A stretch of DNA of 47,359 bases from Candidatus Woesearchaeota archaeon. Its GTDB lineage: Archaea; Nanobdellota; Nanobdellia; SCGC-AAA011-G17; DATDVL01. The stretch is taken from assembly GCA_964365915.1 (NCBI GenBank), contig CAYIRJ010000004.1, positions 1 through 47,359 of the forward strand, written 5' to 3'. Both the position numbers and the translations under genes were made by a program. This document shows, piece after piece, positions 4,201 to 25,632 of the stretch (position 1 is the first letter of the stretch; every line of letters starts with the position of its first letter). A model generated the notes under the pieces. That model was not told the origin of the DNA. It was given only the letters and a program-made list of their open reading frames with translations, and made no database searches.

Positions 4201-4201
4201 C

Positions 4202-9649: not shown

Positions 9650-9652
9650 ACC

Positions 9653-10060
9653 ATGCAGTATGACCTCCAGTTGATTGGCTATCTCAATACTTTTGAATCC
9701 CTAACCCGATCGAAAGTGAAGGATGTGTTCTTTGATGCTACGGAGACCTTGGTGTTTGTGATGCAGCCAGGAGAGATGGGAAAAGCCATTGGCAAGAAAG
9801 GCAGCAATGTGAAACGCTTAGGAAACTTGCTGAAGAAGCGCATTCGCGTTATTGAATTTTCTTCTTCTGCCATTGATTTTGTTAAAAATTGCACGCTGCC
9901 CTTGATTCCGAAAAAGATGGTGCAGGAAGTGGATACTATCACTATCACCATGGAAAATACGCAACAGAAGGCTATGCTGCTGGGAAGGAACAAAAGCAAT
10001 TTCTTGAATATGCAGAAGATAGTGCAGAGATATTATCCGGTGCAGCTGAAAGTGTTATAG
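9653..10060 (+). CDS. nusA: Archaeal NusA-like KH-domain transcription termination/antitermination factor
   Basis: 135 aa with two KH-like segments (GEMGKAIGKKGSNVKRL); conserved position after L30e. Confidence 0.8.
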   Translation: MQYDLQLIGYLNTFESLTRSKVKDVFFDATETLVFVMQPGEMGKAIGKKGSNVKRLGNLLKKRIRVIEFSSSAIDFVKNCTLPLIPKKMVQEVDTITITMENTQQKAMLLGRNKSNFLNMQKIVQRYYPVQLKVL

Positions 10061-11266
10061 AAATATATCATCCTCAGCATCGTAGTCCATTCCTAAGGCC
10101 TTTGTGAATTTTACTTGGTTTTCCTTGATCTGCAGTTTTTGCAGTGCCTTGTTCCTTATTTGTCGAATTCTTTCTCGTGTCACGTTTCCCTCGATTGTAC
10201 CTACTTCTTCCAATGTTCTTTTTTCTCCTGTAAGATACAATAATCTTATTATTCTTTTTTCTCTTTCTTTTAAAGAAGTTTTATCAAGTGCTTGAATAAT
10301 CATTTCTTTATCATAGACTAAAATATTTTCCCTTATCCTTTCTTGGTAATCATGGCAATCTCTTTTTTCCAAATAATCAACTATTTCTTGATCTTGTTGA
10401 TTGTGCTGAATATTTTCTTTTGCTGGAGTTAAGTCCTGCTTAGCTCTGTCATCTAATGTCAACGTTCGATGAAGATTCTGATCTTTGGGTTCTTGGTAAA
10501 GAGTGTTTATTTCTAGATTTACAGGATTCAAAGCCTTGCATATTAATTCAGTTTTTTTATCCGCAATTTCTTCTCCTCTTATTACCTTTTCTGCCCTTAG
10601 GAATAAAAAAGAATCTAGATGCACTGCTGCATAGGAATAGTTATGATAATTTTCACTCATTACACCAAAAAAGGCAGCTCTATACACTGCTGTGTATCCT
10701 GGATGTTTTTCTGCTTTTCTCACGAAATTAATAATAGATATAGAAGCCCGCTGTATGAGATCTTCCAATGGTGGTGATTCTAAATTCCTTGATTTTCTAT
10801 AGCGAATAAATGATTTTCCTGCCTGCGTGGCTGTATGCAGAAAATACGTCTCCATAAATCGTTGCATCTCTTGTTCAGAATATCCTGCTTCTTTCAACGC
10901 TGGAGCAATATGCCCTCGATAATGATGTACAAATGTTGCATGGTATCTTTGATTTACTTCTTCTTGCGTGGCAGATGGGTGCTGCTGTAAAAATTTGAGA
11001 AAGTTCCTTTTTCTTTCATCCCAGACTTTCTCTGACAATTGCCCTTTTCCCCTATTCCAAGCTGATTTTGAAATGCCTACATCTTTTTTTGCATTGTTAA
11101 TTCTCAACCGGTAGAACTTTTTGAGAATGGATTCTAGTCCTGCTTTCCTTACATCCCTTATGCTCGCTCCTTGATGACTTGCTAAATAGTCATAAAATTC
11201 TGTTAATCCTCTTTCCCAATATGCGTAATCCTTCTGTACCTGTTTTTGCTCTGATATAGTAGTCAT
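10055..11266 (-). CDS. Sigma-70-family-like protein (region 2 DLIQ... and region 4.2 HTH) of bacterial type, antisense within the rpo-str cluster
   Basis: 403 aa. C-terminal LDKTSLKEREKRIIRLLYLTGEKRTLEEVGTIEGNVTRERIRQIRNKALQKL is a near-consensus sigma-70 region 4.2. EDLIQRASISIINFVRKAEKHPGYTAVYRAAFFGV resembles region 2.1-2.2 (DLIQEGNIGLMKAVEKFD..GFKFSTYATWWI). Lower GC than its neighbours; overlaps the nusA stop convergently. Confidence 0.7.
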   Translation of the reverse strand: MTTISEQKQVQKDYAYWERGLTEFYDYLASHQGASIRDVRKAGLESILKKFYRLRINNAKKDVGISKSAWNRGKGQLSEKVWDERKRNFLKFLQQHPSATQEEVNQRYHATFVHHYRGHIAPALKEAGYSEQEMQRFMETYFLHTATQAGKSFIRYRKSRNLESPPLEDLIQRASISIINFVRKAEKHPGYTAVYRAAFFGVMSENYHNYSYAAVHLDSFLFLRAEKVIRGEEIADKKTELICKALNPVNLEINTLYQEPKDQNLHRTLTLDDRAKQDLTPAKENIQHNQQDQEIVDYLEKRDCHDYQERIRENILVYDKEMIIQALDKTSLKEREKRIIRLLYLTGEKRTLEEVGTIEGNVTRERIRQIRNKALQKLQIKENQVKFTKALGMDYDAEDDIFL

Positions 11267-11308
11267 TTATCTCTTGTCATTCATTTTCTTTTTAAGACTT
11301 GTGAACTT

Positions 11309-11722
11309 TTAGAATTCCATAACGTGAGGAGATTCCTTTATTTCCTCATTAGCAATCAGTGGAGCTGGTTCCCTACGATACACTCTTCCTTTTGCAATCA
11401 GTTTCGAAGACTCTTCAGGGTGCACTAAAGGAGGATGTTTATACCGTACTTTGACAGCATCATTTTGATACAGTACTGTTCCCTCTGCTTGTAAAATACA
11501 TACCAACCCCTCATCAAGTCCTGCTAGTGGAATATGCCATCCTAAATGAGTTTTTACAGAAGCGAACTGGATACTTTGATTGGGATATGTACATACATAC
11601 CAAAATTTTCCTTCCTCCTCACCCCTTGTTATTCCTCGTGTGATAATGGTCAGAATTTCATTTTTCTTTACTGTCCTTAATACTTCTTCTAATGCAGAAA
11701 AGACCCCCATATGTGACTTCAT
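11309..11722 (-). CDS. Hypothetical protein (137 aa), upstream partner of the sigma-like gene
   Basis: ORF co-oriented with 10055-11266 and separated from it by 42 nt. No recognisable motif. Confidence 0.55.
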   Translation of the reverse strand: MKSHMGVFSALEEVLRTVKKNEILTIITRGITRGEEEGKFWYVCTYPNQSIQFASVKTHLGWHIPLAGLDEGLVCILQAEGTVLYQNDAVKVRYKHPPLVHPEESSKLIAKGRVYRREPAPLIANEEIKESPHVMEF

Positions 11723-11788
11723 ACGTGACTTATTAGGCGTTATGAGTATAAATACTTAATGTCTACCAAATAAAAAATCAGCACAATC

Positions 11789-11796
11789 TTTATAAA
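11789..11796 (+). promoter_or_regulatory. TATA-box-like element for rps12 (leaderless)
   Basis: TTTATAAA centred ~27 nt upstream of ATG 11820. Confidence 0.35.
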
Positions 11797-11819
11797 TGGC
11801 TTTCAGAAATTATTTTCTT

Positions 11820-12257
11820 ATGTCTGGAAAATCCAATGGATTATTTGCTGGAAAGCGCTTGAAGAATCGGAGAAAACAATTTCGGTGGAACTCTAAATGG
11901 TTCACTAGGAAAACACTGAATCTTAAGGAGAAAGCAGATCCTCTGGGAGGAGCTTCGCAGGCTAAGGGAATTGTTTTGGAAAAGACACAGCGGGAAGCGA
12001 AACAGCCAAATTCAGCGATGAGAAAATGCGTTCGCGTTCAGCTTCAGAAAAATGGAAAGATCATCACTGCATTTGCGCCAAGAGATGGAGCCATTAAGCA
12101 GATTGATGAGCATGATGAAGTCATTGTTGAATGCATTGGTGGTACTATGGGAAGGGCGAAAGGAGATTTGCCTGGTGTGAGATGGCAAGTGATCAAGATT
12201 AACGATCAAAGCTTGGATGCCTTACTGAAAGGCAAGATTGAAAAGGGACGACGATGA
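11820..12257 (+). CDS. rps12: 30S ribosomal protein S12 (uS12)
   Basis: [39 protein letters not shown] is a canonical S12 pattern. The start is chosen at MSGKSNG (11820), matching archaeal S12 N-termini, with a TATA at 11789-11796. The ORF track begins at 11796. Confidence 0.9.
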
Positions 12258-12844
12258 AGCTTTTTGGTAGATGGGATGTTGCTGGAATCCAGGTGGCTGA
12301 TCCTGGGCTGAAGGAGTACATTAATTTGAGAGCAATGCATGTGCCCCGCATGGCAGGTAGAAATATGAAAGTAAGATTCTGGAAGAACAAGTACACTTTA
12401 GTTGAACGCTTCATGAACAAGCTGATGGTGCCTGGGCATAAGGGAAAAAAACATCTCTTGAGTTCGGGAAGATGCGGAGGAAAGGGATTGACTTCTGTTG
12501 CTCTCACCTTGAAAACTTTCCAGCTTGTGGAGCAGAAGACCAAGAAAAACCCTATAGAAATTTTTGTGAAGGCTGTTGAGAATGCTGCTCCGCGCGAGGA
12601 TATTACTACTATTGAATATGGGGGTGCAAAATACCCGCATTCTGTTGACTGTGCACCACAACGCAGGATTGATATTGCCCTTCGCTTCATGATCCAGGGC
12701 AGCTACGGAAAAAGCTATGGCAAGAAAATTAAAGCGCATGAGGCTTTGGCAGATGAAATTATCAGAGCATATCAGAGTGATGGAAGGAGCTTTGCCATCT
12801 CCAAGAAACTGGAATTGGAACGGCAAGCTGATGCTGCGCGATAA
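12254..12844 (+). CDS. rps7: 30S ribosomal protein S7 (uS7)
   Basis: 196 aa. [25 protein letters not shown] is a typical archaeal S7 start. ATGA overlap with rps12. Confidence 0.95.
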
Positions 12845-13267
12845 TTACTCTTCTTCGATCCGTTTTTTCTCTACTCTATATCCAGCATATCGAAAAATAG
12901 ACTGATACTCTTTTTTACATACACTGCGTCGTGGTGATTGTTCGGGTTTTGGTTGATGGAGAAGTTCGTCAAGACTCTTGAGATTATAGTCCCATAATTT
13001 ACTTATTCTTCCTTGCGCAGCAAGTTCATTAAAAATTATTTTTATATTCTCTTCAGCATATACTCTCTTGTATCTTTCCCCTATACGTCCCAACATTTTT
13101 GCAATTTTTTCGTCTAGATACTGTACATAGGGAGCAAGTCTCCTTTCTAATCCTCCCCTTCTGCATCCTAATTGGAGTGCCATAGCTTTTACTTCTGGAA
13201 GGACATAGACCAACGTTTTCCCTTCCTGCGCTAATTGTTCTCGATACTGACGTAAACTTTCTGTCAT
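12845..13267 (-). CDS. Hypothetical protein (140 aa) antisense between rps7 and fusA
   Basis: ORF abuts the rps7 stop; charged C-terminus; no motif recognised. Confidence 0.5.
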   Translation of the reverse strand: MTESLRQYREQLAQEGKTLVYVLPEVKAMALQLGCRRGGLERRLAPYVQYLDEKIAKMLGRIGERYKRVYAEENIKIIFNELAAQGRISKLWDYNLKSLDELLHQPKPEQSPRRSVCKKEYQSIFRYAGYRVEKKRIEEE

Positions 13268-13339
13268 ATGTTACCATTATTAAGAGACTCTTTTTAAACA
13301 TTATGCATCAGGAAACGTTTCCTTTCAGTGTTGAAAAGG

Positions 13340-13348
13340 TTTTTAAAT
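13340..13348 (+). promoter_or_regulatory. TATA-box-like element for fusA
   Basis: TTTTTAAAT centred ~28 nt upstream of ATG 13372. Confidence 0.3.
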
Positions 13349-13371
13349 CATTTTCTTGATCTTCTTGAGTC

Positions 13372-15576
13372 ATGGGGAAAGCTACCACTATTGAAGATCT
13401 TAAGGCGTTGATGAAGAAGCCTGATAATATCAGGAATATCTGTACTTCAGCACACATCCATCACGGCAAAACGGCATTAACAGACAACCTTTTAGCAGCT
13501 GCTGGACTGATGAGTGAAAAGGCAGCAGGCAGTCTAGAAGAAGGCATGGCTACTTGGCAGCACAAGGATGAGCAAGAACGATTAATGACTGTGGATGCTG
13601 CGAACGTGAGCATGAGCCATGAGTATGAGGGGCAATCGTATTTGATTAATCTCATTGATACTCCTGGACACGTTGACTTTGGGGGCAATGTAACAAGGGC
13701 CATGCGCGCCATTGATGGTACGATTGTTTTGATTTGTGGGGTGGAAGGGATCATGCCCCAAACCGAGACTGTAATGAAGCAGGCCATCCGCGAACGGGTC
13801 AAACCAGTGTTGTTCATCAACAAAGTAGACAGGATGATCAATGAATTGAAATTGACTCCTGAGCAGATGCAGGAGCGATTCGTGAAACTGGTACTTGATT
13901 TCAACAAGTTAGTGGAAAATATTACAGAAGATGAATTCAAAGAAACATGGAAAGTTAACATTTTGGATGGTAGCGTGGCATTTGGATCTGCACGGGAAAA
14001 CTGGGGATTGAGCATTCCCAACATGAAGAAAAAAGGCATCACCTTCAAACACATCATTGAGCAATACACTTCAGGAAAACCCAAAGAGGAGATTACTGAC
14101 TGGTTCTGGAAGAACGCTCCTCTTTATGAAGTCATACTCGACATGGTGATTAAACATTTGCCGAATCCTCTGATTGCACAGCAATATAGAATTCCGCACA
14201 TCTGGAAAGGAGATATTCAAAGCCGTTTTGGGCAGGATCTGGTGCACTGCAATTCTGAGGGAAAAATTGCCTTTGTCATTACAAGAATTGTGATTGATCC
14301 GAAATTCAGCAGGGAGATGGCTGCAGGAAGGTTATTTTCTGGAACCATTAAAGATGGCATGCAGGTCTGGCTGAACAACGCCAAGCTGCACCAACGGGTA
14401 GGCCAAGTATTTCTCTATAAAGGAACAAGGCCTGAGCAGATTGGAGAAGCTGTTGCGGGGAATGTGATTGCCTTGGGAGGGGTTTCTGGATTTGCAGGAG
14501 AGACGATTACTTTAGAACAGGAGCAGCCGTTTGAGGATATGAAACACATCTTTGAACCTGTCATTACCAAGAGCATTGAACCTATGAAACCTCAAGATCT
14601 GCCGAAACTCGTAGAGATCCTGAAAAAAGTGAGCAAGGAAGATCCTTCCTTGAAAGTCACGATTAACCTGGAAACGGGAGAGAATTTAATTCACGGTATG
14701 GGAGAGTTGCATTTAGAGATTATTGAAAATAGGATCAAGGATGAGCGCGGTTTCCAGGTGAAGACAGGAGAGCCTATTGTTGTGTATCGAGAGACTGTGC
14801 AAAAGCCTTCTGTGGAAATGGAAGGGAAATCTCCGAACAAGCATAATAAATTCTACATTACTGTTGAACCTCTGAGCAAGGAATGGTACACATTAATAAA
14901 AGAAGACGTGCTCACAGGAGGAAAAATGAAGAAAGGCGATGCCGAGGCCTACTTGAAACTGGAAAAGGCAGGTATTCCTGTAAAGGAAGCAAAGAAAATC
15001 AGAGATGTCTACAATGAAAACGTGCTGATTGATGACACGAAAGGAATTGTGGCTATAGGAGAAGTGCAGGAACTGATTAATGAAGGATTTGAACAAGTGA
15101 TGCGCGAGGGTCCCATTGCTCGAGAGCCGTGCGTAAAATTAAAGGTATTTATCAAAGATTGCAAGCTGCATGAGGATGCAATCCATCGAGGGCCTGCTCA
15201 AGTGCTGCCTGCGATCAGAGAAGGTATCAAAGCTGCGATGGTGGATGCGAAGGCACTGCTCTACGAGCCGTACCAAGTTATTCTGATTGAGTGTCCCAGT
15301 GATTTCATGGGAGAAATCAACAAATTGGTTTCGAACAAGCGGGGTCAATTATTCGATATTGAGCATAAGGGCACAGAGATCTTAGTAAAATGCAGGATGC
15401 CGGTGGCTGAGATGATTGGGTTAGCTTCTGATCTGAGAAGCGCAACTGAAGGGAGAGGTACCTATTTCATGGTGGATCAGGAATTTGACAAGGTTCCTGG
15501 GGACTTGCAGGAAAAAGTGGCACGAAAGATTAGGGAAAGAAAAGGTTTGAATCCTGATCAAATGAACCTGAGCTAG
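13372..15576 (+). CDS. fusA: Elongation factor 2 (aEF-2)
   Basis: 734 aa. Has the GTPase motifs AHIHHGKT, DTPGHVDF and NKVD, and the diphthamide loop HEDAIHRGPAQ. Confidence 0.95.
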   Translation: MGKATTIEDLKALMKKPDNIRNICTSAHIHHGKTALTDNLLAAAGLMSEKAAGSLEEGMATWQHKDEQERLMTVDAANVSMSHEYEGQSYLINLIDTPGHVDFGGNVTRAMRAIDGTIVLICGVEGIMPQTETVMKQAIRERVKPVLFINKVDRMINELKLTPEQMQERFVKLVLDFNKLVENITEDEFKETWKVNILDGSVAFGSARENWGLSIPNMKKKGITFKHIIEQYTSGKPKEEITDWFWKNAPLYEVILDMVIKHLPNPLIAQQYRIPHIWKGDIQSRFGQDLVHCNSEGKIAFVITRIVIDPKFSREMAAGRLFSGTIKDGMQVWLNNAKLHQRVGQVFLYKGTRPEQIGEAVAGNVIALGGVSGFAGETITLEQEQPFEDMKHIFEPVITKSIEPMKPQDLPKLVEILKKVSKEDPSLKVTINLETGENLIHGMGELHLEIIENRIKDERGFQVKTGEPIVVYRETVQKPSVEMEGKSPNKHNKFYITVEPLSKEWYTLIKEDVLTGGKMKKGDAEAYLKLEKAGIPVKEAKKIRDVYNENVLIDDTKGIVAIGEVQELINEGFEQVMREGPIAREPCVKLKVFIKDCKLHEDAIHRGPAQVLPAIREGIKAAMVDAKALLYEPYQVILIECPSDFMGEINKLVSNKRGQLFDIEHKGTEILVKCRMPVAEMIGLASDLRSATEGRGTYFMVDQEFDKVPGDLQEKVARKIRERKGLNPDQMNLS

Positions 15577-15793
15577 AACTGAAAAACGAAATATTAATAA
15601 AGGGATTTTCTTTCATTTTTATATCTTTATTCCTGTACGATTGGGTTTTCTTTTTCCCGCAGGAAAGGAGATTTTCTCCTCATCGTTTTCTTAGAGGGTT
15701 TTTGCTCTTTTTTACTCTTTAGTAGTTACAAAACGAAAACTTTAAATATGCAAAGGATTTATTTCTCTTCATAACTTAATGAGGTGTTGACGA

Positions 15794-16117
15794 ATGAAAC
15801 TGATTACAGCAACGGAAAAAGTTGAAAGAATTCTTAATAAAGAAATTAGTGAATATAGAGTTGGGCATAGCTCTTATCAATCTGATTTTGCACGTGCCCT
15901 CCATCTTCGCGAACAGCTCTTCTCTTGTGTTGATCGCATTCTTGATGGGGACACAGAAATCCCACAGATTGTTGGCGTTATTCAACGTGCTTTAAATTAT
16001 GGACCTGAGGTAGAAAATCTTGTTTTACAACTTGGTGCTCAGAGGAATACTACTGTTAGTACTGTCTTACCTGCACCTATTGCAGAAGCAGTTTTTCACT
16101 ATCGACGGAAGAGGTGA
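15794..16117 (+). CDS. Hypothetical protein (107 aa)
   Basis: ORF with GAGGTG Shine-Dalgarno ~8 nt upstream; low-GC island between fusA and tuf. Confidence 0.5.
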   Translation: MKLITATEKVERILNKEISEYRVGHSSYQSDFARALHLREQLFSCVDRILDGDTEIPQIVGVIQRALNYGPEVENLVLQLGAQRNTTVSTVLPAPIAEAVFHYRRKR

Positions 16118-16122
16118 TAATC

Positions 16123-16617
16123 ATGAAGGAAAACGGTGCTGTTGCTGTTCTTGATCAATTTCCTTTTCATTTTGATGATGAGAGATATGTTTCTAGTGTT
16201 GGAGGCACTTATTGTGTTCCTTTACACACTTCGACGCTACGATGTTTCAGTAAGAAGGAAAGGATCTCCCTCCTTCGAGATAGAGAGGAAAGTCTTCAAG
16301 CAAGTCTTTTAGATGCGCGCCACGCATTCGCCAATGATGTTTTAGAACGATGGGTATGCAGAACTTATATTGCCCGACCGGAAGGAGGATCAGAACCATC
16401 TCTGGAAGATGCGGGCGACACTCGTTTATTGTGGTATATTATCGAGGAAAACACGGAACTCCAGTCACGCCTTGAAGATTTCAGAGAACTGAAAGAGGGT
16501 CCTGTGAATCGTGATAACCTTCTGCAAAGACTTTCCGGCTATATAAGGGGGAACTACGACTCGCTCGTTAATGAAGTTTTGGATACTCTCGCAGAAAAAA
16601 ACAGACTTACTGTTTAA
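16123..16617 (+). CDS. Hypothetical protein (~164 aa)
   Basis: ATG at 16123 preceded by AAGAGGTGA. The ORF-track start at 16114 is GTG and overlaps the upstream stop. Confidence 0.5.
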   Translation: MKENGAVAVLDQFPFHFDDERYVSSVGGTYCVPLHTSTLRCFSKKERISLLRDREESLQASLLDARHAFANDVLERWVCRTYIARPEGGSEPSLEDAGDTRLLWYIIEENTELQSRLEDFRELKEGPVNRDNLLQRLSGYIRGNYDSLVNEVLDTLAEKNRLTV

Positions 16618-16729
16618 ATTTATCCTTTTCTTTTTTATTCATGCTAAAAGGATTGAAAAATTCTTTTATGGGGTTAAGATCACAAGTTTTAAATATCCCC
16701 TAATTCTGGCAATTTCCCCACGAGGTTTT

Positions 16730-16954
16730 ATGGTTTATCTTTTCAAGAACGATCGAGGAAGATTTACCTACAAGTTTCATACTCTTCTTGAAGGCAGGCC
16801 TCTGCGTGTGGGTGATATTTATCAGGAACTTACCGCTATTCAGGAATGCCTTGGTCAGCCCTGGCATGAGCACCCTGTTGCGCGACGCAGGATGGGAAAA
16901 GGTGAGATTACGCTTCCGGTATGGAACCTTGTCTCTTGTCATCCTCCGTTATGA
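16730..16954 (+). CDS. Hypothetical small protein (74 aa from internal Met); alternative to 16788-17120
   Basis: ATG at 16730 with GAGGT 4 nt upstream. Overlaps the 16788-17120 ORF in another frame; one of the two may be spurious, or the locus may be frameshifted. Confidence 0.3.
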   Translation: MVYLFKNDRGRFTYKFHTLLEGRPLRVGDIYQELTAIQECLGQPWHEHPVARRRMGKGEITLPVWNLVSCHPPL

Positions 16955-17120
16955 ACGGAACAAAACTCTTGTTGATGCCACTTTGAAAGCAGAAAAGTTT
17001 CTATCGCTTGACACTCCCGCGCTTCTTGCTCTTGAAGATTATTTCTTATCTTATCAGCACAAAGGAAAAGTCCTCCAACTTCTTCGAGAAAAACCTGTAT
17101 CTGCGTTTTCTGCGCTTTAG
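16788..17120 (+). CDS. Hypothetical protein (110 aa); overlaps alternative ORF 16571/16730-16954
   Basis: The C-terminal half (TLKAEKFLSLDTPALLALEDYFLSYQHKGKVLQLL) is protein-like. Ends 4 nt inside the convergent gene 17117-17671. Confidence 0.35.
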   Translation: MKAGLCVWVIFIRNLPLFRNALVSPGMSTLLRDAGWEKVRLRFRYGTLSLVILRYERNKTLVDATLKAEKFLSLDTPALLALEDYFLSYQHKGKVLQLLREKPVSAFSAL

Positions 17121-17671
17121 AATTCTTTCCTTTCCCTGAGATGCTTTATCAGTCCTGGAGGAAGCAAGGGCTTTCCCTTCCTGAGAACGTAAGTGAACGG
17201 CAGCTCTACAGATTCTGTTGTGTTCAAGTGAATTTCAATACCGTCTCGGAATTGAAGATCGTTCAGCTTCTTTCCCTGCATAATCTTTCTTGCCACATAG
17301 ACTGCAGTGTCTGTAGAGAACTGTTTCTTTCCTAGGTTTCTTGTGGGATAGGGGAGCTTTAAGGAAAGCTCTTTTTTGGTTCTTGCACGCGGAGGATGAT
17401 CACCTAAAATGCCCCCTAAAATCAGCGTATCAAACCTGTCCTGCGGGGATAATGTTTTTTGAGCAGACGGATCTAACACATATGCATTTGGGAACTTCAG
17501 CTGGAGAATTGATTTTTTATATACTGTCCCCCACTTTTGGAGTTCCCTTTTTCCCTTCTTGATATTGGTGAAGATAACATTTTCCTTTCCCGCAATCTTG
17601 GAAATGTGCTTGTATTCTATCAGGCACCAGGGAAATAATTCAGGTTCACGATGCTCGACGATGAACTTCAT
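17117..17671 (-). CDS. Hypothetical protein (184 aa), possibly an alpha/beta-knot (SPOUT)-like RNA-modification enzyme
   Basis: Glycine-rich segment FDTLILGGILGDHPPRARTKKEL. The fold assignment is a guess. Confidence 0.5.
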   Translation of the reverse strand: MKFIVEHREPELFPWCLIEYKHISKIAGKENVIFTNIKKGKRELQKWGTVYKKSILQLKFPNAYVLDPSAQKTLSPQDRFDTLILGGILGDHPPRARTKKELSLKLPYPTRNLGKKQFSTDTAVYVARKIMQGKKLNDLQFRDGIEIHLNTTESVELPFTYVLRKGKPLLPPGLIKHLRERKEF

Positions 17672-17836
17672 GGTTGCTCTTCAATAAAAATAAGCAAGCA
17701 AAGGCAAGGTTTATAACAATATTTATCTTGTTCATTTAACTTAACAGTAATGAAATCTCAAGAAATAGAAACGCTTATAAATCATCATCTCCGCATCTCC
17801 ACACATCTTTATCCTAATAAACATGAGGTAACCACT

Positions 17837-19123
17837 ATGGCACGAACAAAACCCCATTTGAACGTTGTCTTTGTCGGACACGTTGACCATGGAAAAAGCA
17901 CTACGATAGGAAGATTGCTCTATGATTCTGGGAACATTGATGAAACTGCTATGCGCAAGCTGAAGGAAACTGCGCAGCAAGTAGGAAAAGTAGGATTTGA
18001 ATTTGCATTTGTCATGGATAACCTCAAGGAAGAGCGCGAGCGGGGAGTGACCATTGACCTTTCGTACAAGAAATTCATCACGCAAAAGTTTGAAATTACC
18101 ATTATTGATGCGCCGGGGCACAAGGATTTTATCAAGAACATGATTACTGGCACAAGTCAGGCAGATGCGGCATTTTTAGTGGTTGCTGCGCCTGAAGGTG
18201 CTATGGCCCAGACCAAGGAGCACTTATGGCTGCTCAAGACATTGGGAGTGCAGCAGCTTGCAGTGCTTATTAATAAAATGGATGTTTCTAAGTATGACCA
18301 GAAGCGCTTTGAAGAAGTGAAGAATGAATTAAGCAAGCTCATTCAAAGCGTTGGGTACAAGCTAGAGAAGGTACAGTTCATCCCCACTGCTGGATTCCCT
18401 GGGGACAATGTAGCAAAGAAATCCCAGAACATGTCCTGGTATACGGGGCCTACGTTACTAGAACAGCTGGACAAGTTTGACACTCCCGAAAAGCCGACGC
18501 AACTACCTTTACGCCTGCCTATCCAGGATGTGTACAACATCACGGGAATTGGTGTGGTCCCTGTAGGCAGAGTAGAAACTGGAATCATGAAAGTCAATGA
18601 CAAAGTTATTATTGTTCCTGGGAGAGATGGAAAAGGAGTGAAAGGAGAAGTCAAGACCATTGAAATGCACCATGAACAGATTCCTGAAGCATTGCCTGGA
18701 GACAATGTCGGATTTTCCATTAAAAACATTGGGAAGAAGGACATTGAACGGGGAGATGTGTTAGGGCATGAGAACAATGTGCCTACAGTGGTGAGCGAGT
18801 TTACTGCGCAGATTGCAGTGATCAACCATCCTACAGTCATTACTGTAGGCTATACTCCCGTGTTCCATATCCATACTGCACAAGTGGCATGCCAATTTGC
18901 AGAATTAATGTACAAGGTGGATCCTCGCACAGGACAGAAGATGGAAGGCAAAGTGGACTTCCTCAAGAATGGGGATGTGGCTGTAGTGAAGATCAAGCCT
19001 ACCAAGCCTGTAGTGCTGGAGAAGCAAAAAGACATTCCGCACATGGCACGATTTGCTATTCGAGATGCAGGCGCTACGGTTGCCGCAGGCATGTGCATTG
19101 ACTACGTGAAGAAGACGCTGTAA
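17837..19123 (+). CDS. tuf: Elongation factor 1-alpha (aEF-1A)
   Basis: [30 protein letters not shown] and NKMD. Start taken at 17837 (GAGGT 6 nt upstream) rather than the ORF-track start at 17750. Confidence 0.95.
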
Positions 19124-19126
19124 CAG

Positions 19127-19165
19127 CGGTTCTTTTCTTATTTTAATCTCTTGTTTTTTAATTCT
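19127..19165 (+). terminator. T-rich tract after tuf (archaeal oligo-T terminator candidate)
   Basis: CGGTTCTTTTCTTATTTTAATCTCTTGTTTTTTAATTC immediately after the tuf stop codon. Confidence 0.3.
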
Positions 19166-19332
19166 GCTTCTGTTAACATCATGTTAATTTATGAAGACTT
19201 AGTGATTGTAACATAGTTGCCCAGCTTTGCACATAAATCTATTTAAATCAGTTTGTCTAAAGAATATGGAAGGAATATGGATAAAATGCATGATTCATAT
19301 GAACCGCAGGATATTGATATTATATAACCAAA

Positions 19333-19917
19333 ATGGTAAAATTATTTTTAGTGCGCCACGGGGAAGCAATTGAAGCAGAGCCTGAGCCTATGCTTTCGAA
19401 AAAAGGTAAACAACAAGCAAAGGCTGTTGCAAAAAGGCTTGTACAATTTCGAATAACGAAAGTATATACGAGTAGCGCACGGCGAGCTTTGGAAACTTAT
19501 GAGCTATACAAAAAATTGAAACCTGATATTCCGGTTATAGTTTCTGATAAGTTAAAAGAAGTATATCGTACATTAGTTGGTGGTCCTGAACGTGAAGGTA
19601 CATCTCTCGATCGTGCAAAGAAAGATATGCAACGTGCAGATACTATCTTAAAAGAGATCCTTGATGATACTAAAGAAGATGATATTGTTCTTTTGTTTAT
19701 TCATGGAAATTTAATTCGATATATTCTTGCTCACTTTTTACAAATAAGTAAAGTGAACTTATGGGAAGAGTTAGAGATTCATGATGCTTCAATCTCATTA
19801 ATCGAAATTGTTAACAACAAACCACAAATCCGCTTGGTTAATTCCATCGAACATTTAGATAAAAAAGAAGTTGATGAATTCTACAATTGCTATGCAAAAA
19901 CAGAATATCTTTCTTAG
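19333..19917 (+). CDS. Histidine phosphatase superfamily protein (phosphoglycerate-mutase-like)
   Basis: LVRHGEA (RHG catalytic motif) at the N-terminus and a second His in LLFIHGNLIRY. Convergent, with a 4-nt overlap, with the glycosyltransferase operon. Confidence 0.7.
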   Translation: MVKLFLVRHGEAIEAEPEPMLSKKGKQQAKAVAKRLVQFRITKVYTSSARRALETYELYKKLKPDIPVIVSDKLKEVYRTLVGGPEREGTSLDRAKKDMQRADTILKEILDDTKEDDIVLLFIHGNLIRYILAHFLQISKVNLWEELEIHDASISLIEIVNNKPQIRLVNSIEHLDKKEVDEFYNCYAKTEYLS

Positions 19918-21086
19918 GAAAGAAGTGTAACTAAAGATTTTGAAGGGCTATCATTAAATTGGTTAATTCCTCGTATTCGTCCTTGCCTTCCCATTGTTGC
20001 TCGTAATTCTGAAAAATTGTATAGTTCAATCGTTTTTGCCTCTAATGCTCCTCTTGATTTTGGATTGATAAGATAACCTGTTGTTCCGTTAACTATTGCT
20101 TCAACAACTCCTCCACTGTTTCCTCCTATAACTGGTATTTGATGCATGCCAGCTTCAAGAAAGACAATTCCAAAACCCTCTACATCATTAGGTGGAATAA
20201 ATTCTGTTGGTAAAACAAAAATATCAGCAGCACCATAGTGCGTTGCTAAACCCACGTTATCAACTTGATCATGAATGTGCACTCTTTCTTCGAGATTATG
20301 AAGATTTATGGTTTCTTGAATATGTGCTTTATTTGGACCATCACCTACGATGGCATAATGGATGTTAGGTATAGCTGTTCGCAGATTAGGAAATATCTCA
20401 ACAAAGCTATACTGACCTTTTCTGTCTATGAGACGCCCTACAGAGAGCACAACAAAATCATCTGGAGTATAACCAAGTGCTATTTTACAATTTGCTTTAT
20501 CTTGTAATGTTGGCGTGCTTAAAGAAGGCGGAAGTAAATGGAATCTTGCATGAATACCTTGATGTACCAATAAATTTTGCGTGAATTTGCTAATACAAAA
20601 AACACGATCTGCATCTTGTAATACAGTTTTGTAAAATAGAGCTTCATCTTGTGTGTATCCTTGATGTGCCCCTGTCGAAGAGCGGTTTTCATTAACAATA
20701 GCATTATCAATGAATACTTCTTTTGCATGGGTAATAATTCCTGTTCGTACAGAAGGTTTATATATTTTATAATCTCGACCAGCTTCTGGATGTGAGCGGA
20801 GATAACCAAAAAGTGCTATATCTGTGTTTGTTTGTCTTAAGATGTCAACAATAGTACGATTCGTTTGTCTTCTGGGAGGAGTTTCATGTTCAAAGGGAAA
20901 AAAATCGGTCCTATACACATCAAATGGTAGACTTTGATAATCTGTAACTTGGCCAATATTATTAGGAACAATAACTTGAAAACGCTCACTTGCAAAATAC
21001 TTTCTATAAATTTGCATTAAGTAAGTTGCTATGCCTCCCTTCATAGGATGGAAATCTTGTGTGATCAGTGTAACACTTTTTACCAT
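19914..21086 (-). CDS. Glycosyltransferase family 4 (GT-B, retaining)
   Basis: EGFGIVFLEAGMHQIPVIGGNSGGVVEAI (E-x7-E region), 390 aa. Confidence 0.85.
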   Translation of the reverse strand: MVKSVTLITQDFHPMKGGIATYLMQIYRKYFASERFQVIVPNNIGQVTDYQSLPFDVYRTDFFPFEHETPPRRQTNRTIVDILRQTNTDIALFGYLRSHPEAGRDYKIYKPSVRTGIITHAKEVFIDNAIVNENRSSTGAHQGYTQDEALFYKTVLQDADRVFCISKFTQNLLVHQGIHARFHLLPPSLSTPTLQDKANCKIALGYTPDDFVVLSVGRLIDRKGQYSFVEIFPNLRTAIPNIHYAIVGDGPNKAHIQETINLHNLEERVHIHDQVDNVGLATHYGAADIFVLPTEFIPPNDVEGFGIVFLEAGMHQIPVIGGNSGGVVEAIVNGTTGYLINPKSRGALEAKTIELYNFSELRATMGRQGRIRGINQFNDSPSKSLVTLLS

Positions 21087-21090
21087 AGGA

Positions 21091-21876
21091 TTATTTGAAT
21101 ACCTCTCGGAATTGTCTTAAAGATGTTTTCGCCTCCCTTGGATGTCCCCATCGATGACGATCATATGCCTGAATTAAAAAGAAAATACCTCTGCCGAAGC
21201 GTAATTCTTCTTGACTTAAGTGAGATTTTCCTTGAAAATATTGATCAAGGTAAGTTGCTTGTTCTGTTCCATTACGACAAACTCGAAGAAGAGGTCTTGC
21301 TAAATCGAAGGCGACAGGTCCATCTAATACATGTTCTAAATCAATAGCAACGAGCCTTTGTTTTGTTTTAACAATATTGCTCAGCGAATAGTCTCCATGA
21401 ATCAACCCATAAGTAGAAAATTGAGGTGTAGGCAATTCATTTTTTCTTACTAACTGATGCTGTAAAAGATAGGTGTAAACACGATCAAGTTTTTCAGCCC
21501 AACCATCTAAATTATAATTATCTACCTGGTGGAATGCTGCTTGAAGCTGTGCGACAGCAAAAATATCTAGGGTAGGTAAGGTCTCTAACACCTCTCCATC
21601 GATAAATGTAGTTACAAATCCTCGTTCAAGTATTCCTACAATAGGTGAAGAAATTATTCTTGATCTATTTTTCTCATCGAGTCTTTGTTTATATTGTGTT
21701 ATATTTGACGTTCTATCTGTAGGATGATAAATAAACGTTCCATTTGCTGTTGTAAATAATAATGGGCTTTGTCTTGTTCCTGCTTTCCATCCCGTATTAA
21801 TAACTTGGTGATGAGTGATTTCTCCAAAATTTCTTGATAATGTAGACATTACTTCTCTTACATTATTTATACTCAT
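21091..21876 (-). CDS. Protein-kinase-like phosphotransferase (APH/choline-kinase/Kdo-kinase fold)
   Basis: GLIHGDYSLSNIV (Brenner HxDxxxxN) and LVAIDLEHV (DxE). Start taken at MSINNV (21876), giving an ATGA overlap with the upstream GT4; the ORF track gives 21915. Confidence 0.7.
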   Translation of the reverse strand: MSINNVREVMSTLSRNFGEITHHQVINTGWKAGTRQSPLLFTTANGTFIYHPTDRTSNITQYKQRLDEKNRSRIISSPIVGILERGFVTTFIDGEVLETLPTLDIFAVAQLQAAFHQVDNYNLDGWAEKLDRVYTYLLQHQLVRKNELPTPQFSTYGLIHGDYSLSNIVKTKQRLVAIDLEHVLDGPVAFDLARPLLRVCRNGTEQATYLDQYFQGKSHLSQEELRFGRGIFFLIQAYDRHRWGHPREAKTSLRQFREVFK

Positions 21877-23060
21877 TTGAATAATCCTCGGTATGTTTGG
21901 AAGATAATATTCCAATCAAATAATGTTTCTGCTCGTATTCTTCCCTTTACTCCCATAGCACGTCGTGTTGTAGGGTTTTGGATAAGCTCAACAAGCCTAT
22001 TGGCTGCTGTTTCATAATCTCTTTCAGATACTAAGAACCCCGTTTCACCATCTTGCACTATTTCAGGGACGCCTCCTACTCGAGAAGCGATGATGGGTAG
22101 ACCTGAAGCAGACGCTTCACAAAGACATCTTCCCATAGTTTCCGTGTGAACATAAGATGAGCCTCGTTCATGCTTTTCTAAGTGGATAGGCATATGTAAA
22201 AAAATATCTGCTGTCCTGAAATATGCAGGCATATCTTCTATTCTTCGTGCACCAAGTAAATGCACATTATTCAATCCACGATCAACCACTATCTTTTCGA
22301 TAGTTTCTCGTTCTGGACCATCACCTAAAATATGATATTGAAAATGGACATCTTGCCTTGTTGCTTGTTCTATTGCTCGAAGTGAATATTCCCAACCTTT
22401 AAAATCAACAAGTCGTGCAGCAGTTAGTATGTTAACAGTTTCTCTTGAGGATGATGTAGTGGGATAAAAAGTATTACAGTCAACACCACCAGTAACTTTA
22501 ACAAGTTTGTCAGAATTCACGCCGACCGATATTGTTCTATGATAAGAGTATTGACTATTGACTATGAATCTGTCTACGTATTTATTTACTAAGTTTACAA
22601 CTCTTGCTCGTGAAGCCTCTAAGCTTCTTGTAGTGTCTGTTTCATCTCCAATCCATCCAGCCACAATATCATTTCCACCTGATCGAACAATAACTTGTGT
22701 TTGTGGATATGTTTGCTTGATAATTGCAAGCGAAGGTAGCCATGTTGGACTATTTAAGTAGAAAATAGTGTTGTTAGGATCTTGATTTGCAAGGAGTATT
22801 ACTGCATCTTTCTCAAAGTTGCCAGTTAATGATTTGTTTACCAATACTTCTAAATCTTTATTTGCAAGTGCTTGTGCTGGTCCATGTGAACTGTCGCCTG
22901 GAGCTGGAACGCCGTCAGTGACTAAATCTTTAACAAATATCTTACTTATAGGAAATTCTTGATGCCCAGCAAATGCACGAGCGAATTCATACGCATGTGT
23001 TTCCATACCACCGATATGGCTAGAGAATTTTGGTGAGATAAAGCAAATTTGCTTAACCAT
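21873..23060 (-). CDS. Glycosyltransferase family 4
   Basis: ETMGRCLCEASASGLPIIASRVGGVPEIVQDGETGFLV, 395 aa. Confidence 0.85.
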   Translation of the reverse strand: MVKQICFISPKFSSHIGGMETHAYEFARAFAGHQEFPISKIFVKDLVTDGVPAPGDSSHGPAQALANKDLEVLVNKSLTGNFEKDAVILLANQDPNNTIFYLNSPTWLPSLAIIKQTYPQTQVIVRSGGNDIVAGWIGDETDTTRSLEASRARVVNLVNKYVDRFIVNSQYSYHRTISVGVNSDKLVKVTGGVDCNTFYPTTSSSRETVNILTAARLVDFKGWEYSLRAIEQATRQDVHFQYHILGDGPERETIEKIVVDRGLNNVHLLGARRIEDMPAYFRTADIFLHMPIHLEKHERGSSYVHTETMGRCLCEASASGLPIIASRVGGVPEIVQDGETGFLVSERDYETAANRLVELIQNPTTRRAMGVKGRIRAETLFDWNIIFQTYRGLFK

Positions 23061-23698
23061 TAAAACTCACCTCGTTCACGAAGAATATCGTCAACAGGTA
23101 CGCCCTTTTTAATATCTTCTTTTATCTTTTGTTCTAAATCGGCAACTGCAACACATTGTGTGAGAACTTCACTTTCAATTGTTTGAGGAATAACAGCGAC
23201 CGCATCATAATCACCAAATAATAAATCTCCTGGCTTGATAGTACATTCTCCAATAATGACTGATATATCTAATTTATCAACAATACCTCTCTTTTTAATA
23301 TCTCGAGCATAGTTGGTTCGCGCAAAGACAGGATAACACATATTTATGGTTTCAATAGTATCTCTTGTACAACCATCAATAATTGTTCCATCAACACCCC
23401 GATATTGAGCTAATGTTGCCATGAGTTCCCCAAAAAATGCCATTTCTTTGAAACCATTTCCAACAACAAGAACATCTCCCTTATTTAATTGCTCAAGAAA
23501 ATGGGGTCCTCTATAAACCTCTCGGTGGTCTTCACCATTAGTAATCGGTTTAAGAGACATTGGTCTTGCTCGCCCAAATAAACGTGCTTTAACAAAGTTA
23601 GGTTTAATGTCTGAAGGAAGTAATTGGTGTGTATACCCCATTTCGTCTAAAACATCAGAGATTATTGCTGAAGAGAGACGTGTTTTATAATCAATCAT
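23060..23698 (-). CDS. RraA-like family protein (class II pyruvate aldolase / RNase E regulator fold)
   Basis: GDVLVVGNGF..AFFGELMATLAQYRGVDGTIIDGCTRD matches the RraA/HMG-CHA aldolase signature. Confidence 0.8.
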   Translation of the reverse strand: MIDYKTRLSSAIISDVLDEMGYTHQLLPSDIKPNFVKARLFGRARPMSLKPITNGEDHREVYRGPHFLEQLNKGDVLVVGNGFKEMAFFGELMATLAQYRGVDGTIIDGCTRDTIETINMCYPVFARTNYARDIKKRGIVDKLDISVIIGECTIKPGDLLFGDYDAVAVIPQTIESEVLTQCVAVADLEQKIKEDIKKGVPVDDILRERGEF

Positions 23699-25112
23699 GG
23701 TTATTCACCCTTTTAAGCCCACGCATGACTGTTTCTGCAAATGCAAAATCTTCTTCAGTATTGATGTCAATACTTTCTATTAATTGGATTGGAAGAATAT
23801 GCGGGGTTTTTCCAATGCGGGATTTACCACTGAGAAGCGCAGCTCTTCTGATAGCATATAAACTCATAGTTTCAATAATGGTTGCGGGAAGGTCAACACT
23901 GTTAGGAATATGGATTGGATCATAGTTTCTTGGTGTACCATCTGCATTCCAAAGATATATCTTTTCTCTTCGTGCAGCAAAGACACTATCATGTTCTTTT
24001 CTTACTGTCAGACGAAATACTGCTTCATCAATAGTACTTCGTAAGAGAAATGGCGCTGTAGGAAGTACCTGCACATATATATCAGCATCTGGAACTCGTC
24101 CTGCCTCGTACAAAAGCAGTTGATTACCGTCAGTGCTATTAGAGGCAAGGCTCTCTGGTCGACGTAATTCTTTATGTCCTCGTCCACTTGCAATATCAAA
24201 TACGATTTGTGATTCACTATCTAAGTAAACGTCTTGAATAGTGTGGCAAGTGAGTAAGGTATCTAAGACATGAAGGAGTAATGGTTTATCACCGAGCTGT
24301 CTAATATTTTTACTTGTAACTCGAGTGCTTGTTCCTTTTGCAGGCACAAATGCTACAACATGATATTTTTGCGCAATTTTTCCTAATAAATCTTCTTGTA
24401 CAAATACATCTAATGAACTTGTTGCATCGTTGACAATACGTCGTCCTGCTTGTTCAAATTGTCGTTGCGCTTCTTGCATATAACTTATAATGAGTGCACG
24501 ATATTCAGGATGCCCAGGTAAACCTTTTTGGATAATGTGACTTTGTGTTCTTGGAAATATTAAATTTGGGAAGTCAGTATTTCGATGAATTTCATAAGCG
24601 TGACCATCTTTTCCCCAATCGTGGTTTGTGCTCAGATCCATGCCTATAATATTTACTCTATTAAATCCAAGGAAGTATGCAAGTTGTAATGCGTCATAGG
24701 CTACTGTTTTTCCTCGCCAAAACCCCTCTTGTAAAGGATTTTGTGCAAAACGAACAACTCCCTGCGGATGACATTGCGGTACAAAGTAGGTTCGCTCATC
24801 TGCTAATTCTTGAGGAAATGTTTTGCAGGCTCCAGCAGCAATAATCTTTATAGTTGGTGTGCCTCTCAATACTCGTTCATACACATCTCTGAACTGGGGA
24901 ATAACATCTTTGTCAGCAACAATGTTAAATGTAGGAGTTACACCTGATTGCCTTAAGATAAGTGGGCTGAGGTTAAGACCAATGGTTACTTCATTTCTCA
25001 GCGCTGAGAGGTCCCTATAGGCTAAACTTGGGCCCGTTCCTGCAATAAACCCATGCTTTCCTCTGAACTTATTTTCCAAGCTAAGAAGGGCTTCAAGACT
25101 ATTTGTAACCAT
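23691..25112 (-). CDS. Fusion protein: N-terminal DUF115 (Maf / MptE-like) domain plus C-terminal CMP-sugar cytidylyltransferase (NeuA/KdsB-like)
   Basis: N-terminal GKHGFIAGTGPSLAYRDL..VTIGLN (DUF115-like). C-terminal HVVAFVPAKGTSTRVTSKNIRQLGDKPLLLHVLDTLL (acylneuraminate/Kdo cytidylyltransferase N-terminal motif). 473 aa; a TATA-like element lies upstream at 25124-25138. Confidence 0.75.
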   Translation of the reverse strand: MVTNSLEALLSLENKFRGKHGFIAGTGPSLAYRDLSALRNEVTIGLNLSPLILRQSGVTPTFNIVADKDVIPQFRDVYERVLRGTPTIKIIAAGACKTFPQELADERTYFVPQCHPQGVVRFAQNPLQEGFWRGKTVAYDALQLAYFLGFNRVNIIGMDLSTNHDWGKDGHAYEIHRNTDFPNLIFPRTQSHIIQKGLPGHPEYRALIISYMQEAQRQFEQAGRRIVNDATSSLDVFVQEDLLGKIAQKYHVVAFVPAKGTSTRVTSKNIRQLGDKPLLLHVLDTLLTCHTIQDVYLDSESQIVFDIASGRGHKELRRPESLASNSTDGNQLLLYEAGRVPDADIYVQVLPTAPFLLRSTIDEAVFRLTVRKEHDSVFAARREKIYLWNADGTPRNYDPIHIPNSVDLPATIIETMSLYAIRRAALLSGKSRIGKTPHILPIQLIESIDINTEEDFAFAETVMRGLKRVNNHD

Positions 25113-25583: not shown

Positions 25584-25632
25584 ATTAATGCTGTAGTGCT
25601 CTTAATTCTTCCTTTATTCCCAGCTGGGTTTA

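Follow-up and report, generated by a model that had tools for sequence, protein, structure and literature searches.

The 47,359-nucleotide stretch of DNA analysed here (contig CAYIRJ010000004.1, assembly GCA_964365915.1; called the window below) comes from a groundwater archaeon of the DPANN group, Woesearchaeota/Nanoarchaeia. It carries the rpo-L30e/nusA-str array, a cluster of genes for RNA polymerase, translation factors and ribosomal proteins that was reportedly first described in Methanococcus vannielii. We consider it probable (roughly 0.7) that in this genome the array is a colinear series of independently promoted units, the boundaries of which tolerate the gain, loss and replacement of genes, and that the present occupants of those boundaries are of three ages. 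In this lineage the array would thus be colinear without being a single operon. The S12-S7 pair, EF-2 and S10 would each be transcribed from a TATA box 22–23 nt before the ATG, giving leaderless mRNAs, while EF-1alpha would use a promoter ~55 nt upstream and a leader with a Shine-Dalgarno motif. Since each unit would be self-sufficient, the gaps between units would be permissive, so that accessory genes could come and go without silencing essential genes; separate promotion of the units before the present inserts arrived would explain why insertion was tolerated. The occupants would comprise (i) old residents common to sister lineages (an SFM1-like methyltransferase and the orf167 and orf137 families), (ii) lineage-specific orphans (a decayed sigma-70 gene, orf107, and orf140, which would have replaced a different antisense gene held at the same place by sister species), and (iii) a glycan cassette that probably entered the tuf/S10 gap, whose two sides were separate by then, as one block together with its own promoter; the likeliest route would be transfer from a Woesearchaeon of lower GC content.

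The identity of the core genes is well established. The genes for rpoH, B'', B', A', A'', nusA, aEF-2 and EF-1alpha give NCBIfam equivalog matches above the curated cut-offs, that of A'' being to the model for intein-containing rpoA''; L30e scores 55.5 bits against its NCBIfam model, below the cut-off of 77, and S12, S7 and S10 were assigned by Pfam. All 12 of the 12 array genes lie on the plus strand and in canonical order, and the gene order given in an earlier note on this DNA (rpoH-B''-B'-A'-A''-L30e-nusA-S12-S7-EF2-EF1a-S10) is borne out by these identifications. The short spacers of canonical archaea are largely missing from the downstream part, where only S12 and S7 are contiguous (a 4-nt overlap, with no insert). 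The remaining gaps measure 1.76 kb (nusA/S12), 0.53 kb (S7/EF2), 2.26 kb (EF2/EF1a) and 6.15 kb (EF1a/S10). The same note had placed extra genes at every junction from nusA onward; the open reading frames (ORFs) that it listed at these four junctions are real, and S12/S7 is intact. The units of the array and their inserts are as follows (GC3, GC content at third codon positions).

685–10060, plus strand: upstream part of the array, no inserts (NCBIfam; Pfam KH domains for the nusA-like protein)
685–927, plus strand: rpoH
924–2405, plus strand: rpoB''
2398–4200, plus strand: rpoB'
4202–6811, plus strand: rpoA'
6792–9398, plus strand: rpoA'', with intein
9395–9649, plus strand: L30e
9653–10060, plus strand: nusA-like KH protein (Pfam KH domains)
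10055–11266, minus strand: insert 1a, sig403, a 403-aa degenerate sigma-70 homologue (Pfam Sigma70_r4); GC 35.6%, GC3 0.277
11309–11722, minus strand: insert 1b, orf137, 137 aa, head-to-head with S12; GC 39.1%, GC3 0.283
11820–12844, plus strand: S12-S7 two-gene unit (Pfam), S7 at 12254–12844; own TATA box at 11789–11796
12845–13267, minus strand: insert 2, orf140, a 140-aa orphan that abuts the S7 stop without a gap, head-to-head with EF-2; GC 38.1%, GC3 0.270
13372–15576, plus strand: EF-2 (aEF-2, 734 aa, without intein; TIGR00490, 923 bits); own TATA box at 13342–13349
15794–17671, mixed strands: insert 3 (orf107, orf167, a doubtful stretch, SFM1)
15794–16117, plus strand: orf107, an orphan, 107 aa; GC 39.8%, GC3 0.231
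16114–16617, plus strand: orf167, 167 aa, member of an old family; GC 43.1%, GC3 0.345
16571–17120: doubtful stretch with two overlapping ORFs of 127 and 110 aa, flanked by orf167 and the 3' end of SFM1
17117–17671, minus strand: SFM1-like SPOUT arginine methyltransferase (Pfam), 184 aa, head-to-head with EF-1alpha; GC 42.7%, GC3 0.476 (native-like)
17837–19123, plus strand: EF-1alpha, 428 aa (NCBIfam)
19320–25156, minus strand except for the phosphatase: insert 4, six-gene glycan cassette, 5.84 kb (Pfam, NCBIfam); genes at GC 34.2–39.6%, GC3 0.19–0.25
19333–19917, plus strand: His-phosphatase
19914–21086, minus strand: GT4
21091–21915, minus strand: APH-like kinase
21873–23060, minus strand: GT4
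23060–23698, minus strand: RraA-like aldolase
23691–25112, minus strand: fusion of MptE/DUF115 and CMP-sugar cytidylyltransferase; own TATA box at 25135–25142
25275–25583, plus strand: S10 (Pfam); own TATA box at 25245–25252

Two start codons were corrected by comparison with relatives. The S12 start moves from 11796 to 11820, the S12 proteins of L001, L002 and L175 beginning MSGKSNG; the EF-1alpha start lies at 17837, the 457-aa ORF from 17750 being an over-extension (the L001 protein begins MARAKPH). T-runs lie 3' of EF-2 and EF-1alpha, with a T-rich tract after the EF-1alpha stop codon.

The loci with which the window was compared (~170) were made up of 80 from GTDB around EF-2 and 80 from metagenomes around EF-1alpha, plus contigs retrieved via individual proteins. 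By EF-2 identity, the best GTDB species representative is L001 (89%), followed by L002 (85%), and then by loci at 77%, 74% and ~70%; L175 (GCA_030648755.1, JAUSGY010000016.1) stands at 85%. Contigs from well H51 of the Hainich groundwater carry identical or 99.84%-identical DNA. Closer relatives without the inserts were sought and set aside: JGI metagenome contigs reach at most 77% EF-1alpha identity, and the sole protein-cluster mates above 90% are the 99.84% variant, with the same inserts.

Interrupted junctions, usually filled by unrelated genes, are the norm in this order, and the window is among the better-preserved examples. A distance of at most 300 nt is found for S12>S7 in 27/29 loci, for S7>EF2 in 5/30 (median 1.4 kb), for EF2>EF1a in 31/79 (with a further 27 loci in which the two genes are unlinked), and for EF1a>S10 in 60 of 94. 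The genes from rpoH to nusA have orthologues in identical order in L001, L007, L009 and L175. Some relatives do have tight junctions further downstream (nusA-71 nt-S12 and EF2-167 nt-EF1a in L007; EF1a-70 to 150 nt-S10 in many loci), which indicates that the compact layout is the older state. One pattern was not general: each core unit that follows an insert in the window faces an antisense gene, while in the ~170 loci the neighbours upstream are mostly co-directional (114 versus 56).

The occupants of the four junctions have unequal distributions among relatives. The same junction and orientation are seen in sisters for SFM1 (L001, L002, L011 and L175; 59–65% identity), for the orf167 family (L001, L175) and for the orf137 family (L175). 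The predicted SFM1 assignment is based on a full-length PF04252 match (1.4e-52, 178.6 bits, covering positions 1–197 of 201). The L175 homologue of orf137, P0243 (39% identity, E 2e-11), likewise lies antisense between nusA and S12, and on this comparison the family is an old one at the junction; the corresponding gap of L001 holds an unrelated 242-aa ORF. For orf167, the matches to L001 o169 and L175 o140 are weak (E 3e-3 and 6e-4), while those two match each other at E 3e-19. By contrast with these families, none of the other loci has sig403, orf140, orf107 or the cassette at these junctions. The earlier note had read the inserts as four acquisitions and had taken two outcomes as counting against this, namely uniform composition or the same genes at the same junctions in relatives. 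The composition is not uniform (see below), and shared occupants were found for the SFM1, orf167 and orf137 families only; acquisition can thus be upheld for the cassette as a relocated block, and not for these three families.

Turnover at the junctions is also evident. At S7/EF2, sister species share a different antisense gene (L001 o204 and L175 o139, 31% identical to each other, E 8e-16). We tried orf140 as a diverged orthologue of that family and rejected it, the alignment score being no better than those of shuffled sequences; the sisters' gene being unrelated to orf140, a replacement has occurred. Searched against 5.8 billion protein clusters, orf140 finds only itself, and orf107 has no homologue in any compared locus (large protein databases were not searched for it). 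After EF-1alpha (16000–20500), L001 carries Fic, a truncated tyrosine integrase, an AbrB/PIN toxin-antitoxin pair and a NUDIX hydrolase, with no S10 within 5 kb: a different mobile-element scar at the same place. L002 and L004 have yet other genes at the junctions.

The orphan ORFs look coding, as judged from codon usage: the codon log-odds of sig403, orf137, orf140, orf107 and orf167 are positive only in the annotated frame of the six, and those of control antisense ORFs inside EF-2 and S7 are negative. The two ORFs at 16571–17120 have weak log-odds and no similarity to the 141-aa L001 o141 at the same place, and may be a decayed gene or non-coding DNA. A strain variant, L177 (corresponding to window positions 3372–16192), is 99.84% identical and differs by 21 single-nucleotide polymorphisms (SNPs). 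Every one of them falls in a core gene, with clusters in rpoA' and S7, and 0 fall in the 2.4 kb of insert genes. This clustering may reflect recombination tracts or low-coverage assembly noise, and as a test of selection on the orphans the 21 SNPs are too few to interpret.

The cassette in the EF1a/S10 gap provides the clearest case of movement. Its six genes, all of whose enzyme matches lie below family cut-offs, occur as the same gene block on contigs L086–L094 in other contexts, with four different contexts in four genomes. Positions 19320–25156 align with L086 2694–8529 (L086: NCBI protein MFA4887112.1; JGI 3300028032, Ga0265296_1004517) in a single high-scoring segment pair (HSP) of 5839 nt at 85.7% identity. 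The edges of the HSP are sharp: it ends 13 nt upstream of the phosphatase ATG on one side and 44 nt upstream of the MptE ATG on the other, which means that the block carries the MptE promoter. The remaining sequence of L086, L089 and L092 matches neither the 47-kb window nor each other, and in none of 170 loci do cassette genes adjoin EF1a/S10. Nanoarchaeia commonly encode homologues of the MptE-cytidylyltransferase fusion (86, 85, 81, 77, 70, 64 ... % identity); the source of the cassette is the Woesearchaeal gene pool, and not outside it.

Two further lines of evidence bear on the origin of the cassette. Firstly, it has diverged less from L086 than the core has from the nearest species: identity pooled over four-fold degenerate sites reaches 0.71 between cassette and L086 (chance 0.34), but 0.39 for the core versus L001 and 0.33 versus L175 (chance 0.26 for each). 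Secondly, its GC content of 0.371 is below that of the core (0.45) and of the remaining window (0.42), and the GC3 of its genes lies below that of every other window gene; in L086, the genes on either side of the block have an equally low GC content. The 90% protein clusters of EF-2, S7, rpoA', rpoB', S10 and SFM1 contain Hainich sequences only; the L086 contig, by contrast, had been assembled in three further data sets. The simplest reading of these sequence comparisons is that the cassette was transferred as a block from a lower-GC Woesearchaeon, later than the split from the nearest known species; the direction and the mechanism of its transfer are what we infer.

Base composition sorts the genes of the window into three tiers. 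Mean GC3 is 0.49 in the core genes (range 0.40–0.57; total GC 42.6–46.7%), 0.38 in the other window genes (23 genes, 0.26–0.49) and 0.27 in the inserts (Mann-Whitney tests: core versus inserts, p = 6e-5; inserts versus others, p = 5e-4; core versus others, p = 1e-4). The rough counts of the earlier note, 45–48% GC in the core against 30–38% in the inserts, were right in direction but exaggerated the difference by a few points; the computed range for inserts 1, 2 and 4 is 34.2–39.6%. A lower GC content holds for these three, mainly at third positions (0.19–0.28 versus 0.40–0.57), while the fusA/tuf insert (insert 3; GC 39.8–46.5%) is mostly not lower. In tetranucleotide and dinucleotide signatures, the inserts are farther from the core than is the rest of the window, segments of 2–6 kb being too short for a firm call.

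These tiers invite an alternative in which nothing was acquired: all junction genes would be vertically inherited, their low GC3 reflecting weak codon selection on poorly expressed genes, and the core genes, being highly expressed, would have been pushed to C/G-ending codons. The graded means of core, other and insert genes speak for this alternative, as do the three families common to sisters, the GC3 of 0.28 in orf137 (an old resident), and the similarly low values of unrelated junction ORFs in L001 (0.23–0.37). However, the RpoA'' intein, an internal control, has a GC3 of 0.32 versus 0.48 in its exteins; as the two are translated as one polypeptide, expression level is not the whole explanation of low GC3. 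Several ordinary window genes (a nucleotidyltransferase, a TIM-barrel fusion and a MazE-domain protein) have core-like values of 0.46–0.49. Vertical descent also sits poorly with a cassette that is found in four contexts and has a synonymous divergence far below that of the core, with sig403 and orf140, which have no relatives anywhere, and with the different shared gene that sisters hold at the S7/EF2 site. We consider purely vertical descent unlikely.

Promoter motifs bear on whether the inserts broke an operon. With a TATA call defined as an 8-mer matching TTTAWATA at 7/8 positions or more, a box ends 22–23 nt before the ATG of S12 (23 nt, from the start at 11820), EF-2, S10 (22 nt), orf140 (23 nt) and the MptE gene. 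Such spacing predicts leaderless mRNAs. Weaker TATA-like boxes lie ~23 nt from the ATG of orf137 and sig403, neither reaching 7/8; that of orf137 is ATTTATAC (6/8, 23 nt to the ATG). EF-1alpha differs, with a GAGGT Shine-Dalgarno motif at -12 to -8 (17825–17829) and a TATA-like CTTATAAA (6/8, 17774–17781) ~55 nt upstream. The earlier claim of a TATA box close before each downstream core gene is therefore right for S12, EF-2 and S10, and not for EF-1alpha. A single str operon, with one upstream promoter and no internal promoters or terminators, is not what the motifs suggest; antisense genes intervene between the core units, and the T-runs after EF-2 and EF-1alpha also count against it.

The same motifs were found in relatives whose junctions differ. 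For S12, the same CTTTATAAA box lies 23–27 nt upstream, including in L007, where the nusA-S12 gap is 71 nt. L001 has the EF-2 box in the same arrangement, and so has L003, where S7 and EF-2 are 58 nt apart. The EF-1alpha Shine-Dalgarno motif is present in 26/29 tight and 60/88 expanded relatives, and a TATA box 40–62 nt upstream in 20/29 and 56/88, respectively. With S12, EF-2 and EF-1alpha motifs in the same places in tight-junction relatives, the motifs predate the inserts. The S10 gene of L004, L007 and L009 has the same CTTTATAAA box 22–23 nt upstream, with 0.5–1.7 kb of other DNA there and no cassette; the S10 promoter, common to these cassette-less loci, thus predates the cassette insertion. 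Across the loci, a TATA box 19–28 nt before S10 occurs in 28/37 expanded or unlinked cases but in 10/59 tight ones (Fisher p = 1e-8), and an S10 Shine-Dalgarno motif in 15/59 tight versus 2/37 expanded (p = 0.013).

In the archaeal pattern known from Sulfolobus and haloarchaea, first cistrons are leaderless and internal cistrons carry Shine-Dalgarno motifs. S10 fits this rule: when alone it is preceded by a TATA box at about -23 to -30 and lacks a Shine-Dalgarno motif, and when it directly follows EF-1alpha the TATA box is rare and the Shine-Dalgarno motif more frequent. Here the rule is seen in motif statistics of uncultivated Woesearchaeota only.

The explanation offered by the earlier note was that four recent foreign insertions broke a co-transcribed operon, the downstream core genes then gaining promoters of their own. 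In keeping with it, three inserts are lower in GC, a TATA box stands before S12, EF-2 and S10, some relatives have tight junctions, and the S10 promoter tracks junction expansion across the order. Yet the motifs stand at equal spacing where the junctions are tight (71 nt in L007, 58 nt in L003, 20/29 tight EF-1alpha loci), the cassette-less loci have the S10 box too, insert 3 is not low in GC, and three insert families are common to sisters at 85–89% EF-2 identity, a distance at which synonymous sites are saturated. New promoters acquired in response to the inserts are thus not what the relatives show; inserts 1b and 3, together with three of the four promoters, already contradict this explanation, and we consider it even less likely than vertical descent.

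The mosaic structure was also checked against independent assemblies. Three replicate assemblies and a Logan run reproduce S7/orf140/EF2, MptE/S10/IS200 and, at 99.84% identity and without gaps, the whole of rpoA'-to-orf107, so that nusA through orf107 and MptE through IS200 are covered and a chimera is unlikely at these junctions. That the window is an assembly or binning artefact joining different organisms is hardly credible: the contig is metagenome-derived and coverage in the replicate assemblies is ~4x, but the covered junctions recur and the flanking synteny with L001, L004 and L175 runs on across the inserts.

Several points weigh against a series of independently promoted units with occupants of three ages, or against parts of that reading. 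Firstly, the promoters, leaderless starts and unit boundaries are motif-based predictions, and it is from motif placement that we infer that the motifs fire and that the mRNAs are leaderless. Secondly, low GC3 cannot by itself prove foreign origin, the baseline here being 47 kb of genome: orf137 is an old resident despite its value of 0.28, and L175 is low in GC3 even in core genes (0.28–0.35, versus about 0.45–0.57 in the window and L001), which indicates that GC content is shifting inside the clade and that low GC3 is no clock. Thirdly, with synonymous sites saturated relative to the nearest species, the arrival times of sig403, orf140 and orf107 are not bracketable. Finally, the cassette borders show no integrase, tRNA or direct repeats, the cassette may have been translocated within the genome of a close unsampled relative rather than transferred, and its EF1a edge (19124–19320) is covered by none of the independent assemblies.

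The most unusual of the orphans is sig403, which is convergent with nusA (6-nt overlap). Region 4 is well preserved: Pfam PF04545 (Sigma70_r4) matches at 41.1 bits versus a cut-off of 24.1, and the comparison with SigA region 4 in the PDB gives E 9e-9. No Pfam match to sigma-70 regions 2 or 3 was obtained, even at E<=10. BLASTP aligns the protein collinearly with bacterial RpoD, starting in region 2.1 and ending in region 4.2 (29% across 236 aa, E 5e-11), but within region 2 the pairwise match extends to 2.1/2.2 only, and TYATWWIRQ is replaced by AVYRAAFFGV, so that the motif for -10 recognition and melting has been lost. Only region 4 exceeds a family threshold, regions 2.3/2.4 and 3 being degenerate. 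All NCBIfam sigma models score far below their cut-offs (TIGR02937, 28.6 bits versus 42.9). The AlphaFold model has a mean predicted local distance difference test (pLDDT) of 49.9 and is confident only at residues 320–385 (pLDDT 72–85). Among the 5.8 billion protein clusters the only homologue is sig403 itself, the next match being bacterial RpoD at E ~1e-6, in region 4; the gene is known only from this population. The most fitting description is that of a primary sigma gene of bacterial type which has decayed but whose region-4 helix-turn-helix is intact. The RNA polymerase of the host is archaeal, and the window has no bacterial core polymerase genes.

Other identities for sig403 and its fellow orphans were tried and rejected. 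A viral origin was not supported, as sig403, orf137 and orf140 have no relatives in IMG/VR and the PHROGs matches are to sigma region 4 only; a role for sig403 in defence likewise found only a region-4-level PADLOC match, to MzaA. Sigma-70-like genes lie directly downstream of S10 in two Woesearchaeal contigs, L152 (2546–3433), which is full-length by Pfam (regions 1.2, 2, 3 and 4), and L156 (2968–4257), found by a phmmer match to L152 only (E 2e-12). Enrichment of sigma genes near the cluster was not retained, the 3 further cases in 2.4 Mb of loci being judged no more than chance if there are 1–2 such genes per genome. Castelle et al. (2021; PMC8204110) describe sigma-70 genes in DPANN as 'particularly prevalent in Woesearchaeota', with unknown function. 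Like those cases, sig403 is a bacterial-type sigma-70 homologue in a Woesearchaeal genome, on a contig with archaeal markers; unlike full-length copies, it is an orphan in which only region 4 exceeds the family threshold.

A bolder extension is that unit boundaries are recurrent 'safe-harbour' sites of gene gain in Woesearchaeota, an autonomous leaderless promoter, as at S10, licensing insertion. Within it sig403, tail-to-tail with nusA and beside the RNA polymerase genes, would be a repurposed region-4 DNA-binding regulator working with the archaeal transcription machinery. We hold the two together to be doubtful.

Operons are fragmented in reduced DPANN genomes such as that of Nanoarchaeum equitans. 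The window is similar in that its informational cluster appears, from sequence, to be no longer one transcription unit, and dissimilar in that the genes are spaced apart and colinear rather than scattered; as in fragmented DPANN genomes, EF-2, EF-1alpha and S10 are unlinked in many Woesearchaeal loci. The canonical archaeal cluster (PMC10833476) agrees in gene content, order and orientation, and also in having both rpoB and rpoA in two parts; here, in contrast, unrelated genes take up 0.4–6 kb at four junctions, and every downstream unit is preceded by a promoter motif of its own. That survey (2023) describes the rpo-str cluster as intact in DPANN GW2011_AR10 and split in other lineages, and does not address inserts within the cluster. 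The cassette resembles the glycosylation islands of flexible genomes in being compact, multi-gene and lower in GC than its surroundings, and in forming a conserved block at different chromosomal sites in relatives that diverges more slowly than the core. It differs from them in having no integrase, tRNA or repeats at its edges, and in its site inside the most conserved gene array of the genome.

Taken together, the best explanation of the finding is an ordinary turnover of accessory genes in gaps bounded by promoters, typical of Woesearchaeota. It is a new example of known phenomena and involves no new molecular mechanism, and sigma-70 genes of Woesearchaeota are already published (PMC8204110). 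Its interest lies in three points. Firstly, colinearity need not mean co-transcription: the most conserved gene array of archaea would, in a DPANN lineage, be a string of separate units with quickly changing gaps, which is relevant to the use of the cluster in binning checks, synteny-based annotation and operon prediction for DPANN genomes. Secondly, the cassette offers a clean, dated case of surface-glycan genes that travel together, as one block, among Woesearchaeota. Thirdly, low GC3 marks old and new accessory genes alike here, a caution against its use as a clock.

Two mobile or intervening elements lie in or next to the array.

25620–26145, plus strand: IS200/IS605-type element, directly 3' of S10, apparently intact
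25736–26119, plus strand: Y1 transposase (Pfam Y1_Tnp; NF033573 transpos_IS200, 97.8 bits versus a cut-off of 55)
7014–8447, plus strand: RpoA'' intein, 478-aa LAGLIDADG (S...HN/T), splitting RpoA'' at GEPGTQM/TLNVFHFAG

The IS200/IS605 assignment is based on the Y1 (HUH) transposase and on subterminal hairpins at both ends, formed by a 28-nt hairpin repeat (family D6) at 25628–25655 and 26114–26141 with the palindrome CCGCAGC-TCT-GCTGCGG. The element lies beyond S10, away from the cassette, and is also in the replicate assemblies. Repeats or att sites at the borders of the inserts were looked for, and none was found beyond chance, the sole meaningful repeat being that of the IS200 element. 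An intein occupies the same RpoA'' site in L001, L003, L005 and L009, whereas L007 and L175 have none there. Inteins are also found in relatives at genes that have none in the window: in EF-2, a 198-aa mini-intein in L001 (10103–10696) and large LAGLIDADG inteins in L002 (3414–7211), L004 (6523–10197), L008 and L009; in S12, inteins in L003 (1401–3356) and L004 (3398–5452).

Some minor features remain. Two adjoining tRNA genes, presumably intron-containing, lie directly upstream of rpoH at 469–565 (97 nt) and 568–669 (102 nt); Rfam scores the pair at 49 and 61 bits, and ARAGORN reports none. Long antisense ORFs, at 13461–14084, 12199–12690 and 4558–4986 (all minus strand) and elsewhere, were rejected as genes on their negative codon log-odds; the apparent conservation in relatives of those within EF-2, S7 and rpoA' is a reflection of the conserved sense gene. 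A 93-aa ORF at 27707–27988 (minus strand) matches only the first ~55 of 302 positions of a diphthamide synthase profile; it is kept as a 93-aa ORF in L004 (67% identity), which points to a stable mini-protein rather than a fresh truncation.

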